Virus record (IMG/VR): IMGVR_UViG_2703719354_000010
Length of the DNA: 5,710 bases
Reading direction: 5' to 3' (one strand)
Source of the DNA: a virus
Taxonomy: Duplodnaviria; Heunggongvirae; Uroviricota; Caudoviricetes
This document shows, piece by piece, positions 1,436 to 5,710 of this stretch. The translations under genes were made by a program, and so were the position numbers. Numbering within the stretch: position 1 is the stretch's first letter; the number at the start of each line of letters is the position of its first letter. The notes under the pieces are model-generated. The model was given only the letters and a program-made list of their open reading frames with translations. It had not been told where the DNA came from and made no database searches.

Positions 1436-2097
1436 ATATCTACGAAAGAATTGATGGCAGCAAATACCGAAATATTTGGGTAGTTGGCGATCTGCACGGA
1501 TGCTACACGAACCTGATGAAAAAACTGGAGACGATAGGATTCGACACCAAAAAAGACCTGCTTATCTCGGTGGGCGATTTGGTTGATCGCGGTACAGAGA
1601 ACGTAGAATGCCTGGAATTAATCACATTCCCCTGGTTCAGAGCTGTACGTGGAAACCATGAGCAAATGATGATTGATGGCTTATCAGAGCGTGGAAACGT
1701 CAATCACTGGCTGCTTAATGGCGGTGGCTGGTTCTTTAATCTCGATTACGACAAAGAAATTCTGGCTAAAGCTCTTGCCCATAAAGCAGATGAACTTCCG
1801 TTAATCATCGAACTGGTGAGTAAAGGAAAAAAATATGTCATCTGCCACGCCGATTATCCTTGTGATAAATACGAGTTTGGAAAGCCAGTTGATCATCAGC
1901 AGGTAATCTGGAACCGCGAACGAATCAGCAACTCACAAGACGGGATCGTGAAAGAAATCAAAGGCGCGGACACGTTCATCTTTGGTCATACGCCAGCAGT
2001 GAAACCACTCAAATTTGCCAACCAGATGTATATCGATACTGGCGCAGTGTTCTGCGGAAACCTCACATTGATTCAGGTACAGGGAGAAGGCGCATGA
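1432..2097 (+). CDS. ninI: Serine/threonine protein phosphatase (lambda PPase, ORF221 family; calcineurin-like metallophosphoesterase)
   Basis: 221 aa, [32 protein letters not shown]...GDLVDRG...RGNHE..., carrying the canonical metallophosphatase motifs GDxHG, GDxxDRG and GNHE. Near-identical to lambda phosphatase as recalled. ATGA overlaps link it to ninG upstream and Q downstream. Confidence 0.93.
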
Positions 2098-2717
2098 GAC
2101 TCGAAAGCGTAGCTAAATTTCATTCGCCAAAAAGCCCGATGATGAGCGACTCACCACGGGCTACGGCTTCTGACTCTCTTTCTGGTACTGATGTGATGGC
2201 TGCTATGGGGATGGCGCAATCACAAGCCGGATTCGGAATGGCTGCATTCTGCGGTAAGCATGAACTCAGCCAGAACGACAAACAAAAGGCTATCAACTAT
2301 CTGATGCAATTTGCACACAAGGTATCGGGGAAATACCGTGGTGTGGCAAAGCTCGAAGGAAATACTAAGGCAAAGGTACTGCAAGTGCTCGCAACATTCG
2401 CTTATGCGGATTATTGCCGTAGTGCCGCTACGCCGGGCGCAAGATGCAGAGATTGCCACGGTACAGGCCGTGCGGTTGATATAGCCAAAACAGAGCAGTG
2501 GGGGATAGTTGCTGAGAAAGAGTGCGGAAGATGTAAAGGCGTCGGTTATTCAAGAATGCCAGCAAGCGCCGCATATCGCGCTGTGACGATGCTAATCCCA
2601 AACCTTACCCAACCCACCTGGTCACGCACTGTTAAGCCGCTGTATGACGCTCTGGTTGTGCAATGCCACAAGGAAGAGTCAATCGCAGACAACATTTTGA
2701 ATGCGATCACACGTTAG
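2094..2717 (+). CDS. Q: Late gene antiterminator Q (lambda Q type)
   Basis: 207 aa, [83 protein letters not shown]...[12 protein letters not shown]...[10 protein letters not shown]..., same length as lambda Q and near-identical, including the zinc-binding Cys cluster. Followed by a pR'-like promoter. Confidence 0.95.
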
Positions 2718-2759
2718 CGCCATGATTGCCACGGATGGCAACATATTAACGGCATAATA

Positions 2760-2805
2760 TTGACTTTTTGAATAACTTTGGGGAAACTTGACACCAATAA
2801 TGGGC
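2760..2805 (+). promoter_or_regulatory. pR'-like late promoter with Q-utilisation (qut) region: -35 TTGACT (2760..2765), 17-nt spacer, -10 GAAACT (2783..2788), then a -10-like pause element AATAAT in the initial transcribed region
   Basis: About 45 nt after the Q stop the sequence aTTGACTttttgaataactttgggGAAACTtgacaccaataatggg is co-linear with lambda pR' (TTGACTtattgaataaaattgggTAAATTtgactcaacgatggg) as I recall it. Similarity to lambda ends near 2806. Confidence 0.6.
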
Positions 2806-2929
2806 GTTTTTTACATGTCATTGATGAGTCTCAATAACCTGCCGCCGAGTAGTTTTTATGCTCTGAATTGTATTTGTGTAGTAAACATGCTGACTGCAAT
2901 GTAATAGAGTTTTTTTAGCCTGTAACCTC

Positions 2930-2958
2930 TTGACGGCATTGAATTGCTTTTGTTATGA
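2930..2958 (+). promoter_or_regulatory. Possible sigma70 promoter inside the AT-rich island: TTGACG (2930..2935), 17-nt spacer, TTATGA (2953..2958)
   Basis: Good -35 hexamer, mediocre -10, located just upstream of the membrane-protein ORF. Pattern match only; AT-rich DNA produces many such matches. Confidence 0.25.
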
Positions 2959-3713
2959 GTTGTAAGCCAATGTTATCATCTTGTATTGGGGTGGTTATGA
3001 AGGATGGTGCGCTGCTCAGGAGTTCTTCACTTTTTATTGCCTACATGGGATGCCTTGGATGGGGGAGTGCTTATTTCTATGGATGGGGTACTTCTTTTTA
3101 CTACGGCTTCCCATGGTGGATTGTAGGTGCAGGTGTTGATGATGTTGCCAGAAGTTTATTTTTTGCAGTTATCGTCATTGCTATATTTCTTATCGGTTGG
3201 GGTATTGGTGTTGTATTCTTTTTCGCAGTGAAAAGAAAACATTCTATGCAAGAGCTAAATGTATTTCGCCTTTATTTTGCTGTGGAATTATTGTTTGTGC
3301 CGGCAATTATTGAGTTTTCTATATTGAGACAGAAGATTCAGGTACCTCTTTTGCTACTGTCAGCAGCGATTGCGCTGGCGGTTACAATTTCGATAAGATC
3401 TTATGGGCGATTTTTATCGGTATCATGCTTCTATGATAAGCCATTTATAAAAAAACATTTTTTTGAGATTGTGATGATTGCTTTTGTGGCATATTTCTGG
3501 CTTTTTTCATTTCTGACAGGATATTACAAACCACAGTTTAAGAAAGAATATGAAATGATTAATTATAATGATGGTTGGTATTATGTTCTTGCTCGTTATG
3601 ATAATTGTCTGGTTTTGTCTACTTCTTTCAATGCAGGTAGTAAAAGGTTTGTCATTTATCAATCAGCACAAGATAAGAATCTTCAGGTTGATATTGTAAG
3701 GACCAGAATTTAA
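2955..3713 (+). CDS. Hypothetical polytopic inner-membrane protein (252 codons from the first ATG; alternative starts ATG 2970 and ATG 2997 give 247 or 238 aa), function unknown; cargo (moron) gene
   Basis: A 759-nt ORF in DNA that is AT-rich by eye, where stop codons should be frequent, so it is very unlikely to be open by chance. The product has an aromatic/Gly-rich N-terminus (GWGSAYFYGWGTSFYYGFPWW) and at least four hydrophobic helix-length segments (FFAVIVIAIFLIGWGIGVVFFFAV, LYFAVELLFVPAIIEFSIL, VPLLLLSAAIALAVTISI, FFEIVMIAFVAYFWLFSFLTGYY). A ~60-aa polar C-terminal tail (KPQFKKEYEMINYNDGWYYVLARYDNC...DIVRTRI) follows. No convincing SD for any start. I do not recognise the family. Confidence 0.7.
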   Translation: MSCKPMLSSCIGVVMKDGALLRSSSLFIAYMGCLGWGSAYFYGWGTSFYYGFPWWIVGAGVDDVARSLFFAVIVIAIFLIGWGIGVVFFFAVKRKHSMQELNVFRLYFAVELLFVPAIIEFSILRQKIQVPLLLLSAAIALAVTISIRSYGRFLSVSCFYDKPFIKKHFFEIVMIAFVAYFWLFSFLTGYYKPQFKKEYEMINYNDGWYYVLARYDNCLVLSTSFNAGSKRFVIYQSAQDKNLQVDIVRTRI

Positions 3714-3846
3714 TTGGCTGCATAAATAATATTTTAAGTTGCAAGTTGGCTATTCGTAGGAATAGAACCTTAGGCATGCTGAATGCGTTTTCTGAACATT
3801 GTTTTATAAACTGTGTCTGCTTGCTGTTGTGATCCTGCTTTTAGTG

Positions 3847-3957
3847 ATGGTGATGATGGATTTCACCAGCAGGATAATGTTGGTACTGACTGATGGCGCT
3901 CTGGTCTGCGGCATTGTGGTATTGCTGTGGCCGATGATGAAAGAACAGAATGAATAA
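3847..3957 (+). CDS. Candidate small hydrophobic protein (36 aa from ATG 3847; in-frame GTG 3829 or TTG 3799 would give 42 or 52 aa)
   Basis: Frame 1 reads MVMMDFTSRIMLVLTDGALVCGIVVLLWPMMKEQNE then TAA 3955..3957: one transmembrane-length hydrophobic segment with a charged C-terminus. No SD and below the ORF-track size cut-off. The region is also open on the - strand (3841..4047), so coding status is unresolved. Confidence 0.25.
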   Translation: MVMMDFTSRIMLVLTDGALVCGIVVLLWPMMKEQNE

Positions 3958-4092
3958 TTCTTGACTTTTTTGTTTACTGTTTATTAAAAAATCAACCGCA
4001 TGGTGAATCCTCCTTGGAGGGGCTAAATGATCGAGTTTTAAGGGCACGTAGCGAGTTCTGTTTGATCATTGCAGAACTTAGCGGGAGGCGCC

Positions 4093-4203
4093 ATGCGTAC
4101 ATCACTAATGTTATTTCCTTCTATCATTTTCCTTGTGAGTTCTGGCTGCGCATGGCGCGGCCTTTTTTTTATGACCTGCCACTGGCAGATGGTCATCCTG
4201 TGA
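4093..4203 (+). CDS. Candidate 36-aa peptide with a lipoprotein-like signal sequence; overlaps the terminator hairpin and may be spurious
   Basis: GGGAGG (4083..4088) lies 4 nt upstream of ATG 4093. Product MRTSLMLFPSIIFLVSSGCAWRGLFFMTCHWQMVIL, with a positively charged n-region, hydrophobic core and Cys at position 19. The mature part would be only 17 aa, and the FF run comes from the terminator T-tract. Confidence 0.2.
   Translation: MRTSLMLFPSIIFLVSSGCAWRGLFFMTCHWQMVIL
4144..4170 (+). terminator. Rho-independent terminator: GC-rich hairpin GGCTGCGC-(ATG)-GCGCGGCC followed by T8
   Basis: Read directly: 8-bp stem 4144..4151 / 4155..4162 (seven Watson-Crick pairs and one G-U), 3-nt loop, then tttttttt at 4163..4170. 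The complementary strand has no T-tract after the hairpin, so it is oriented with the late operon. Confidence 0.7.
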
Positions 4204-4256
4204 TTTGATTCCGCTTCCGGCTTTTTAACTCTGTTCCTCTACACGGGAGAAATTCG

Positions 4257-5710
4257 ATGTCGATTAAACATTACGATGTTGTCAGGGCGGCGTCGCCGTC
4301 AGACCTTGCGGAAAAGCTGACACACAAACTGAAAGAGGGCTGGCAGCCATACGGCGGATCGGTTGCCATTACGCCGTACACACTGATGCAGGCGGTGGCT
4401 ATTGAAGGAGAGCCACAGGTCGGCCCTTCATCTGAGCCGGATTGGTACTACGTCATCGTACTGGCCGGGCAGTCCAATGCCATGGCTTACGGTGAAGGGC
4501 TTCCGCTGCCGGATTCATACGATGCTCCGGATCCGCGCATTAAACAGCTGGCGCGCCGCAGTACAGTGACGCCGGGCGGGGCTGCCTGCAGATATAACGA
4601 TATTATTCCGGCTGACCACTGTCTGCATGATGTGCAGGATATGAGTACGCTGAATCATCCGAGGGCTGACCTGAGCAAAGGGCAGTACGGCTGTGTCGGC
4701 CAGGGTTTACATATTGCCAAAAAACTGCTCCCGTATATCCCGAATAACGCGGGGATCCTGCTGGTACCATGCTGTCGTGGTGGTTCGGCATTTACCCAGG
4801 GCGCGGAGGGGACATTCAGCGAGTCCACGGGGGCCAGTCAGGATTCGGCACGCTGGGGGGTGGGCAAGCCGTTATATCAGGATCTGATTTCCCGCACAAA
4901 AGCGGCATTGCAGAAAAATCCCAAAAACGTTCTGCTGGCCGTCTGCTGGATGCAGGGTGAGTTTGACATGAGCGCCGCCACCCACGTACAGCAACCTGCG
5001 CTGTTTACAGCCATGCTGACACAGTTTCGTGCTGACCTCTCCGTGTTTAACGCGCAGTACCATGGTGGCAGTGCTGCAGATGTGCCGTGGGTTTGTGGTG
5101 ACACGACGTATTACTGGAAAAATACATACGCTACCCAGTACGACACCGTGTACGGCGGGGATAAAAACAGGGGGAGGGAGGGGGNNNNNNNNNNNCATGG
5201 TGGCAGTGCTGTAAATGTGCCGTGGATTTGTGGTGACACGACGTATTACTGGAAAAATACATACGCTACCCAGTACGACACCGTGTACGGCGGGTATAAA
5301 AACAGGGAGAGTGAGGGCGTTTATTTTGTGCCCTTCATGACAGACGGTAACGGCGTCAATACCGCCACTAACGCGCCGGCAGAAGATCCGGATATTCCGG
5401 CATCAGGATATTACGGTGCGGCATCGAGAACGAATGGAAACCAGGTATCATCAAACCGCCCGACACATTTCAGTTCATGGGCGCGCAGGAGCATTATTCC
5501 GGATCGTCTGGCAACCGCTATTCTGAACGCAGCCGGGCGCACCTCCGCCTTCATCAGTGGTAAGGCACCGGAAATCAAACCCTCGCCCGGCGGCAACACG
5601 CCATCGGGTCCGTCTGCAGATACGTCCGTTCGCACAATCTCCCTGCTGCCGGCAGCCGGAGAGGCTGCTGCGCAGGGCTGGAGCATTAAGGATGGCGGAA
5701 TTCAGTTGTC
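4257..5710 (+). CDS. nanS: Prophage-encoded sialate (9-O-acetyl-Neu5Ac) O-acetylesterase, NanS-p / YjhS family (SASA/SGNH-type esterase); 3'-partial, interrupted by a scaffold gap
   Basis: GGGAGA (4245..4250) lies 6 nt upstream of ATG 4257. Frame 0 is open from 4257 to the window end: MSIKHYDVVRAASPSDLAEKLTHKLKEGWQPYGGSVAITPYTLMQAVAIEGEPQ...YYVIVLAGQSNAMAYGEG...LLVPCCRGGSAF...CWMQGEFD... It has the N-terminal domain typical of these prophage esterases and a GQSN catalytic-serine motif. Missing from the ORF track because of the N run and no in-window stop. Confidence 0.88.
   Translation, partial: MSIKHYDVVRAASPSDLAEKLTHKLKEGWQPYGGSVAITPYTLMQAVAIEGEPQVGPSSEPDWYYVIVLAGQSNAMAYGEGLPLPDSYDAPDPRIKQLARRSTVTPGGAACRYNDIIPADHCLHDVQDMSTLNHPRADLSKGQYGCVGQGLHIAKKLLPYIPNNAGILLVPCCRGGSAFTQGAEGTFSESTGASQDSARWGVGKPLYQDLISRTKAALQKNPKNVLLAVCWMQGEFDMSAATHVQQPALFTAMLTQFRADLSVFNAQYHGGSAADVPWVCGDTTYYWKNTYATQYDTVYGGDKNRGREGXXXXHGGSAVNVPWICGDTTYYWKNTYATQYDTVYGGYKNRESEGVYFVPFMTDGNGVNTATNAPAEDPDIPASGYYGAASRTNGNQVSSNRPTHFSSWARRSIIPDRLATAILNAAGRTSAFISGKAPEIKPSPGGNTPSGPSADTSVRTISLLPAAGEAAAQGWSIKDGGIQL
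5061..5319. repeat. Direct duplication of ~124 bp flanking the N gap (copy 1 5061..5184, copy 2 5196..~5319); probable unmerged overlapping contig ends
   Basis: Both copies begin catggtggcagtgctg...gtgccgtgg...tgtggtgacacgacgtattactggaaaaatacatacgctacccagtacgacaccgtgtacggcggg. They differ at a few positions; copy 1 ends in a G-rich run (cagggggagggagggg) directly before the Ns, where copy 2 reads cagggagagtgagggcg. Confidence 0.85.
5185..5195. other. Scaffold/assembly gap (11 N)
   Basis: A run of n characters inside the nanS-p reading frame. Confidence 0.99.

Follow-up and report, generated by a model that had tools for sequence, protein, structure and literature searches.

A probable and mostly ordinary prophage moron behind a lambda-type late promoter whose proximal terminator has decayed

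Q-mediated late control is usually described as a late promoter, pR', followed directly by a terminator, tR'. The closest described systems are the pR'-qut-tR' module of lambda (6S RNA), the late region shared by phage 434, prophage PP2 of enteropathogenic Escherichia coli (EPEC) E2348/69 and prophage Sp3 of strain Sakai, the lambdoid morons (the Juhala/Hendrix concept, with lambda bor and lom and stx1 with Pstx1 as examples), the short pR'-tR' transcript StxS of Shiga toxin (Stx) phages, and the small RNAs (sRNAs) PasD1 and PasD2. The constitutive activity of lambda-family pR' promoters is established and has been restated for Stx phages (PMC7547250). The use that can be made of this constitutive output (StxS, PMC7547250), the moron concept, the pR'-proximal moron site, the flanking sRNAs (PMC4104026) and PasD are also already known. 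Here we analyse a 5,710-nucleotide stretch (the window) from the Caudoviricetes record IMGVR_UViG_2703719354_000010, which is the 5.7-kb late-control region of a lambdoid E. coli prophage, and within it a gene for a membrane protein (the cargo) lying between a lambda-type pR' and the first strong terminator. For the most part the locus is a common prophage moron, set apart by a single peculiarity. We consider it probable that the cargo belongs to an autonomous moron with its own promoter, with read-through from pR' as a possible additive input.

In the arrangement that we propose, positions 2930-4170 would form a lysogen-expressed moron block (a TfpB-family protein, a DUF3927 peptide and PasD1) placed in the classical moron position behind pR'. 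The cargo would be transcribed mainly from its own sigma-70 promoter (TTGACG, an 18-nt spacer with TGn, and TATGAG), and PasD1 would have a promoter of its own and supply the only strong terminator of the block. In the lambda-Q lineage, the tR' found ahead of this block in Q82-type prophages has decayed to a 4-bp stem, and constitutive pR' transcripts would meet no sequence stop before the PasD1 terminator. Because nothing earlier would stop them, this terminator would be the barrier that Q has to get past on the way to nanS-p and the lysis genes. Read-through from pR' would contribute a share of cargo expression of unspecified size, possibly a substantial one. The features on which this proposal turns are the following, where dG is the hairpin energy and d the terminator score described below.

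2094-2717, + strand: lambda-type antiterminator Q gene (PF03589, E = 1e-57), with 203/207 residues as in lambda Q (98%).
2760-2788, + strand: pR' with its qut spacer (-35 TTGACT at 2760-2765, 17-nt spacer, -10 GAAACT at 2783-2788); predicted start about 2795-2796, activity predicted by homology.
2796-2812, + strand: initial transcribed region, with a -10-like AATAAT plus GGG (2796-2804) and then a T6 run.
2839-2859, + strand: decayed relic of a Q82-type tR', CTGCCGCCGAGTAG followed by TTTTTAT (4-bp stem, dG -1.2, U5, d = -33).
2861-2916, + strand: long, weak, A-U-rich hairpin abutting a U7 tract at 2910-2916 (dG -7.3 over 49 nt, d = -15.7, sub-threshold).
2930-2959, + strand: putative sigma-70 promoter of the cargo (-35 TTGACG at 2930-2935, extended -10 TGt at 2951-2953, -10 TATGAG at 2954-2959, 18-nt spacer; predicted start about 2966).
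2997-3713, + strand: cargo open reading frame (ORF), a 238-aa membrane protein (phrog_1521, E = 2e-154), Shine-Dalgarno sequence GGGGTGG at 2988-2994.
4144-4170, + strand: PasD1 intrinsic terminator, the first strong one after pR' (8-bp stem with 7 G-C pairs, loop of 3, T8; dG -14.0, d = +52).

The resemblance to lambda is close on the promoter side. An earlier note on this DNA, made from its letters alone, had placed pR' at 2760-2788, and this element is indeed the base-for-base homologue of lambda pR' (TTGACT-17-TAAATT), with which it aligns column by column with an identical -35 and identical spacing, directly behind the Q gene (the -35 starts 43 nt past the Q stop codon). The homology to lambda begins inside Q and stops at about 2796, which is the predicted start site. 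Just downstream, AATAAT plus GGG sits, by sequence comparison, at the position of the lambda pause-inducing AACGAT plus GGG, and would act in pausing if established lambda biology applies here. The locus departs from lambda in four respects: no terminator is found about 200 nt downstream of pR', the first one lying about 1.37 kb away; the -10 is GAAACT; the qut (Q-binding) spacer carries four substitutions, the spacer and -10 (2766-2788) together carrying five; and the homology ends at the start site. The -10 matches 3/6 consensus positions vs 4/6 in lambda and keeps -11A and -7T. A generic promoter scan did not list pR' because of this 3/6 match. The whole pR' sequence is identical in phage 2B8, O26 11368 and EPEC PP4.

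Three observations touch Q and its promoter. By analogy with lambda a pause is predicted at +16/+17, which lies within the T6 run right after GGGCG (2802-2813), and in a complex paused there the rU:dA hybrid would be very weak. Only four residues of Q are changed from lambda (L135Q, R138I, V140A and V205I), and three of these changes cluster next to the zinc-binding CxxC motifs; together with the changes in the qut spacer and -10, these may reflect protein-DNA co-variation. Finally, inside Q, where lambda has its antisense promoter paQ, TTGCGAGCACTTGC at 2381-2394 (- strand) fits the consensus for a CII site.

A weakened -10 raises the question of whether pR' is crippled in this lineage, in which case the loss of tR' would be without consequence in the lysogen and the prophage might be defective in late expression. 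The poor -10 match and the omission of the site from the promoter scan fit this idea, as does the likely derived state of GAAACT, deduced from a rarer variant of the same junction that keeps TAAATT; many such prophages are also degraded, EPEC PP4 and O26 having no nanS-p. However, TTGACT, the 17-nt spacing, -11A and -7T are all intact, the same sequence occurs in phage 2B8, which was deposited as a phage genome, and the lambda-type junction sequence is at least 99% identical in 556 genomes. We therefore regard a crippled pR' as highly improbable.

To score terminators we used a home-made discriminant of the d'Aubenton-Carafa type, with hairpin energies from ViennaRNA and every U-rich tract scored. 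It was calibrated on three positive controls, lambda tR' (+15.3), phage 434 tR' (+32.2) and window 4144-4170 (+52.1), with a hairpin limit of 80 nt, as a 45-nt limit misses lambda tR'. A tR' would be expected within a few hundred nucleotides of a lambda-type pR', and none was found there in the window. A scan of the + strand with a terminator tool returned no terminator-like site in 2789-4143 and a single one at 4144-4162 followed by T8, and our own score gave no positive site in 2789-4143, the best leader candidate reaching d = -15.7. The earlier note had seen no convincing terminator between pR' and the cargo ORF, had put the first canonical one at 4144-4170, upstream of nanS-p, and had accordingly placed the cargo between the two; on all three points, with the tR' of lambda and 434 detected as controls, our scans agree. 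The terminator lies 87 nt before the nanS-p ATG (4257) and about 1.37 kb downstream of pR'. What the earlier note did not recognise is that it is the terminator of PasD1.

Transcripts from pR' might still be attenuated within the 200-nt untranslated leader by the hairpin and U7 at 2861-2916, by Rho or by H-NS sitting on the AT-rich DNA, which would leave the late operon gated by Q near pR' and the cargo expressed from its own promoter only. The hairpin is a possible weak attenuator: a perfect U7 follows a 49-nt structure of -7.3 kcal/mol, and the 434 allele has a less stable one than the lambda-Q allele (-1.7 vs -7.3). The leader and cargo have a GC content of 30-44%, typical of H-NS targets, and cargo counts are modest (see below). 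Against this, d is well under threshold, and the closing stem is weak and not conserved in the 434 allele. The leader as a whole folds no better than shuffled sequence (z = -0.57). No obvious Rho loading site was seen in it, the leader being C-poor (14% C, C/G below 1, no window with C>G). Attenuation in the leader thus seems to us improbable, and we return to the reading of an autonomous moron preceded by a lost terminator.

The absent proximal terminator is, judging from the alignment, a decayed copy of a Q82-type tR'. The insert of the window is 99% identical, from 2853 to the window end (membrane protein, DUF3927, PasD, terminator and esterase), to that of phage 434, EPEC E2348/69 PP2 and Sakai Sp3, but there it stands behind a Q82-type antiterminator and promoter with an intact tR'. 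The phage 434 homologue of 2839-2859 is CCCGCTGCCGAGTGGG followed by T8 (dG -8.5, d = +32) and is annotated as a terminator in the phage 434 record (OL657226). Three substitutions and a 4-nt deletion separate the window from it, and what is left at 2839-2859 is not the G-C-rich stem-loop followed by a U-tract of an intrinsic terminator; intact Q82-type tR' hairpins have 6-8 bp, are G-C-rich and are followed by T7-T9. HnrS (PMC13502914) was considered as a Q82-type pR'-tR' transcript and set aside, as it is encoded in Sp9, Sp10 and Sp12 and not in Sp3, the cargo-bearing Sakai prophage.

The same division holds across a larger sample. Among 72 IMG/VR loci encoding the identical cargo protein only two junction classes occur. 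All Q82-type leaders have a positive terminator (32/32, +22.9 to +38.4), and no lambda-Q-type leader has a positive site (0/40, -15.7 to -24.2), the divergent variant with -10 TAAATT included. Complete E. coli genomes (n = 5426) carry the lambda-type junction in 572 cases and the Q82-type in 620, with both present in many O157:H7 strains. The two alleles diverge by about 15% over 2836-2900 and by less than 1% beyond, and recombinants exist. The lambda-type leader is unique over 2796-2852, and 8 single-nucleotide differences from the Q82-type copy fall in 2853-2900.

The cargo has what appears from its conservation to be its own promoter, as a moron should. When the regions upstream of cargo homologues are aligned, almost the sole conserved block is cTTGAC(G/T)-N15-TG(T/C)-(T/A)AT, at -67 to -74 from the ATG. 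It is shared by the window and four independent E. coli/Citrobacter lineages, including plasmids of enterotoxigenic E. coli (ETEC) with eltAB, Citrobacter rodentium with lpxR (this copy has no TG) and other E. coli islands. These homologues are 57-68% identical, have no Q or pR' nearby, and lie in upstream DNA that is otherwise unalignable. A single TTGACK-N15-TGNTAT is found in the window, and 0/200 shuffles have one. That the promoter block persists in loci without any Q or pR' speaks most strongly for an autonomous moron. The earlier note had listed a weaker second promoter at 2930-2958: its -35, TTGACG, is real and conserved, but the better -10 is TGt-TATGAG (2951-2959) rather than TTATGA, a shift of one base, and the element is, on present sequence comparisons, a more economical driver of the cargo than pR'.

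Two other promoter candidates lie in the same region. A second promoter-like element, the extended -10 TGtTATCAT at 2971-2979, is paired with TTGTTA at 2950-2955 and lies 18 nt before the ATG; it is plausible, but being only partly conserved in homologues it was not taken as the main promoter. A CII-dependent promoter was suggested by TTGYN6TTGY at 2950-2963, which overlaps the cargo promoter, and by a CII-site annotation in the phage 434 record. This pattern is not enriched (3 matches vs 1.5 expected, equalled in 40/200 shuffles) and so provides no evidence for such a promoter.

Expression of the locus in lysogens could be followed in EPEC E2348/69, where the lambda-Q junction of the window recurs in PP4 (99% over 2075-4281) and the junction of PP2 is of the Q82 type. 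The values below are DESeq2 base means from uninduced cultures in the activating / non-activating condition (PMC8550237, Table S2).

PP4 Q (lambda-type): 6.0 / 1.3
PP4 cargo: 147 / 90
PP4 pasD1: 8652 / 502
PP4 holin: 5.4 / 1.2
PP4 lysozyme: 3.9 / 0.6
PP2 Q (Q82-type): 69 / 43
PP2 cargo: 226 / 120
PP2 DUF3927: 37 / 27
PP2 pasD2: 11017 / 1476
PP2 nanS-p: 102 / 16
PP2 holin: 3.5 / 1.1

Nearly all other genes of PP2 and PP4 stand at 0.1-10, the main exceptions being genes presumed to form the immunity region, along with two genes of PP2, lpxR and its Q82-type Q. The cargo is therefore among the few prophage genes transcribed under repression, at a level near that of ordinary housekeeping genes, with the lysis genes silent. 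Silence of the cargo in lysogens would have spoken against the earlier note; the counts are 90-226, vs 0.6-6 for the lambda-type Q and lysis genes. Expression of the cargo independently of Q in lysogens is thus well supported. The same note had also made nanS-p and the lysis genes dependent on Q, which suits the holin (1-5) but suits nanS-p less well, since it is low rather than silent in EPEC PP2. We also infer, with good support, that the 4144-4170 terminator gates the lysis genes. A side observation is that the Q82-type Q gene of PP2 (E2348C_0685) reaches 43-69 counts in uninduced cells vs 1-6 for the lambda-type Q of PP4, and the holin downstream of it is still silent.

Could pR' itself be the main cargo promoter, making one transcript through the membrane protein, DUF3927 and PasD to 4170 in every lysogen, with little added by the internal promoter? 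No scoring terminator separates pR' from 4144 in the window or in 40/40 related loci, pR' still has its -35, its spacing and the critical -11A and -7T, EPEC PP4 expresses cargo and DUF3927 with Q and holin silent, and, as noted, lambda-family pR' promoters are constitutive (PMC7547250 for Stx phages). On the other hand, the same cargo is equally common behind an intact tR', with counts at least as high, and the internal promoter is conserved where no pR' exists. Moreover, the read density of the cargo (about 0.1-0.3 per nt) is roughly 25-250x below that of PasD1, which is modest for an unterminated late promoter, though differences in stability could explain it, and the -10 is weakened relative to lambda. 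We judge this explanation unlikely. Hence the earlier proposal that the cargo is transcribed from pR' in every lysogen survives as regards expression in uninduced cells and is only possibly right as regards the driver. The layout of the region, the lack of a scoring terminator in the leader, the decay of tR', the conserved promoter motif and the expression in uninduced EPEC are shown by the data; which promoter makes the cargo transcripts, and that pR' is active, we likewise infer, and the own promoter of the cargo remains our preferred source.

Several points weigh against this preference. The terminator score is home-made and gave lambda tR' no more than a modest value (+15), and termination of a weak or factor-dependent kind may occur in the leader. 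The promoter is assigned by sequence conservation only; the T that is usually invariant is missing at -7 of the proposed -10, TATGAG; and the promoter motif is not shared by the more distant homologues from Salmonella, Yersinia and Klebsiella. Finally, the two EPEC cargo copies differ by 3 single-nucleotide polymorphisms in 717 nt, so that counts are not attributable to one copy and expression of the copy behind the intact tR' is not demonstrable from them. The PP2:PP4 count ratio was considered as a means of assigning expression to one copy and rejected, since it would depend on the read length and multi-mapping policy of that study.

A bolder extension of the lambda-type case is that the lambda-Q lineage (about 10% of complete E. 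coli genomes, among them O157, O26, O103, O111 and EPEC) lost tR', that constitutive pR' then came to co-transcribe a 1.4-kb conversion unit (the TfpB protein, DUF3927 and PasD), that the PasD terminator was co-opted as the single Q-gated barrier, and that GAAACT is a tuning mutation. We put this forward tentatively and think it rather unlikely. If pR' does read through, a constitutive phage promoter would feed a conversion gene, and perhaps PasD, in every lysogen, and the terminator of an sRNA would decide the release of the lysis genes and, at the equivalent position of Stx phages, of toxin genes. If the own promoter of the cargo explains all expression, the locus would be an ordinary moron and the decay of the terminator neutral. 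Either way, about 570 sequenced E. coli genomes, from major lineages of enterohaemorrhagic E. coli (EHEC) and EPEC, have a lambda Q/pR' without a proximal terminator, and the first barrier there, 1.37 kb downstream, is a terminator belonging to a virulence-associated sRNA; the prophages in which an intact terminator precedes this cargo provide a natural matched control, which makes the question directly testable.

Comparison with the remaining known systems places these features. As in the lambdoid morons, an AT-rich insert with its own promoter and a terminator after it lies at the pR'-proximal site and is expressed from a repressed prophage; unlike them, the terminator here comes from a separate sRNA gene and not from an ORF, and the insert is also exposed to a constitutive late promoter. 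StxS is likewise an example of a use made of the constitutive output of pR' in lysogens, but it derives from a 258-nt transcript ended by an intact tR', whereas here no such short transcript is predicted and a coding transcript of 1.37 kb is possible. In a limited literature search we found no description of a true lambda Q/pR' pair without a proximal terminator, of the homologous hairpin in a visibly decayed state, of the PasD terminator as first barrier or of the lambda-Q and Q82 contexts as natural matched controls.

The downstream part of the block consists of the following features.

3799-3957, + strand: DUF3927 / TciB-like small membrane protein of 52 aa (PF13064, E = 3e-14, 53 bits vs a cutoff of 25; phrog_1470).
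3961-3989, + strand: putative PasD promoter (-35 TTGACT at 3961-3966, A/T-rich -10 region at 3982-3989; consensus match only).
3998-4170, + strand: sRNA PasD1 (PasD/STnc100 family; EcOnc13 homologue in EHEC), 100% identical over 173 nt to pasD1 of E2348/69 (1060260-1060432).

No terminator was found directly after the cargo ORF or DUF3927, and the terminator of PasD1 closes the block. Both PasD1 and PasD2 are Hfq-dependent sRNAs of high abundance, verified by northern blot and by RIL-seq (PMC8550237, Pearl Mizrahi 2021), and are homologous to EcOnc13 of Sakai Sp3; the published northern probe for PasD matches window 4129-4152. According to the preprint of Zhu, Shabalina and Storz (2026), PasD sRNAs lie directly upstream of a sialate esterase gene and within 10 kb of Q. 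PasD1 occupies the same place in the window, upstream of the esterase and lysis genes and less than 10 kb from Q, with no difference from the described gene. The putative promoter occupies the stretch 9-37 nt ahead of the mapped 5' end of PasD; it hardly varies among four loci, which show one substitution just upstream of it, at 3959. Since TTGACT (3961-3966) fits the mapped end, PasD probably has its own promoter. Rfam STnc100 (RF02076) matches 3968-4173 with 37.7 bits (E = 1e-5), short of the gathering score of 47, which agrees with the published description of PasD and STnc100 as distant relatives. Rfam matches to asX2, SorX and GcvB at the PasD1 terminator were at chance level and were discarded.

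Some smaller observations concern the same region. AgvB and AsxR were not found in the Rfam scan of the window, and so the locus appears to be without the convergent anti-sRNA of other Sakai prophages; the bidirectional terminator and convergent anti-sRNA of the equivalent site in other prophages are absent here. Right after the T8 of the PasD terminator there is an imperfect hairpin, ATGACCTGCCA-C-TGGCAGATGGTCAT, at 4171-4196, with no U-tract on either strand. Two short ORFs overlap PasD1 and its terminator without any family match, one at 4014-4208 (+ strand; 'putative membrane protein' in phage 434) and one at 4038-4196 (- strand; 'hypothetical protein' in RefSeq), and both are probably over-annotations. 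The minus-strand ORF E2348C_1013 has 2064 counts and is Hfq-dependent in the EPEC RNA sequencing table, most likely because of captured PasD1 reads.

The cargo ORF most likely starts at ATG 2997, with GGGGTGG ahead. In precomputed annotation, the 100%-identical cluster P0001 and all 108 homologues carry the label PF27470 ('TfpB'); our local copy of Pfam-A gave no match, and neither did PADLOC and NCBIfam searches with the protein. An AlphaFold2 model of low confidence (pLDDT 62, pTM 0.49) shows about five transmembrane helices and a small C-terminal beta domain, and is too weak to base a fold search on. The literature searched on TciB, TfpB and the locus tags offered nothing usable on function or expression. 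The family is confined to Enterobacteriaceae. Homologues of 45-68% identity adjoin eltAB (LT toxin) on ETEC plasmids and lpxR on the C. rodentium chromosome, and others stand near an STb/AraC locus, near an sseJ-like gene (Salmonella) and after an unrelated Q family (Yersinia). TfpB-family homologues thus recur near virulence or envelope genes, namely eltAB, the STb locus, lpxR (three separate contexts) and the sseJ-like gene; in phage 434, EPEC PP2 and Sakai Sp3, lpxR lies just upstream of Q. This neighbourhood hints at an envelope-related conversion function, and the recurring company of lpxR, LT and STb loci at a part in the envelope or in virulence.

The rest of the window has the layout of a lambdoid late-control region.

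812-1435: ninG.
1432-2097: Ser/Thr phosphatase gene.
About 2800-4170: AT-rich insert.
4257-5710, + strand: nanS-p-type SASA esterase gene (PF08410, PF03629), interrupted by a run of N and leaving the window.

The GC content is 30-44% over 2800-3900 vs 45-55% upstream and 53-60% in nanS-p, which sets the insert apart in composition from the phage genes around it. In 308 records of complete E. coli genomes (O26, O103, O111, O157 and EPEC among them) and in phage 2B8, the stretch 2700-4260 is matched at 99% identity or more. A tRNA scan of the window gave no match, which differs from Stx phages. The nanS-p-type esterase gene is 99% identical to the esterase genes of phage 434 and EPEC PP2. Its 11-N run at 5185-5195 (within 5061-5320) is flanked by two near-identical copies of a nanS-p segment of about 122 nt, and window 2853-5182 and 5196-5710 map onto overlapping parts of the intact genes of phage 434 and EPEC PP2; the interruption of the ORF looks like a scaffolding artefact, a false break.

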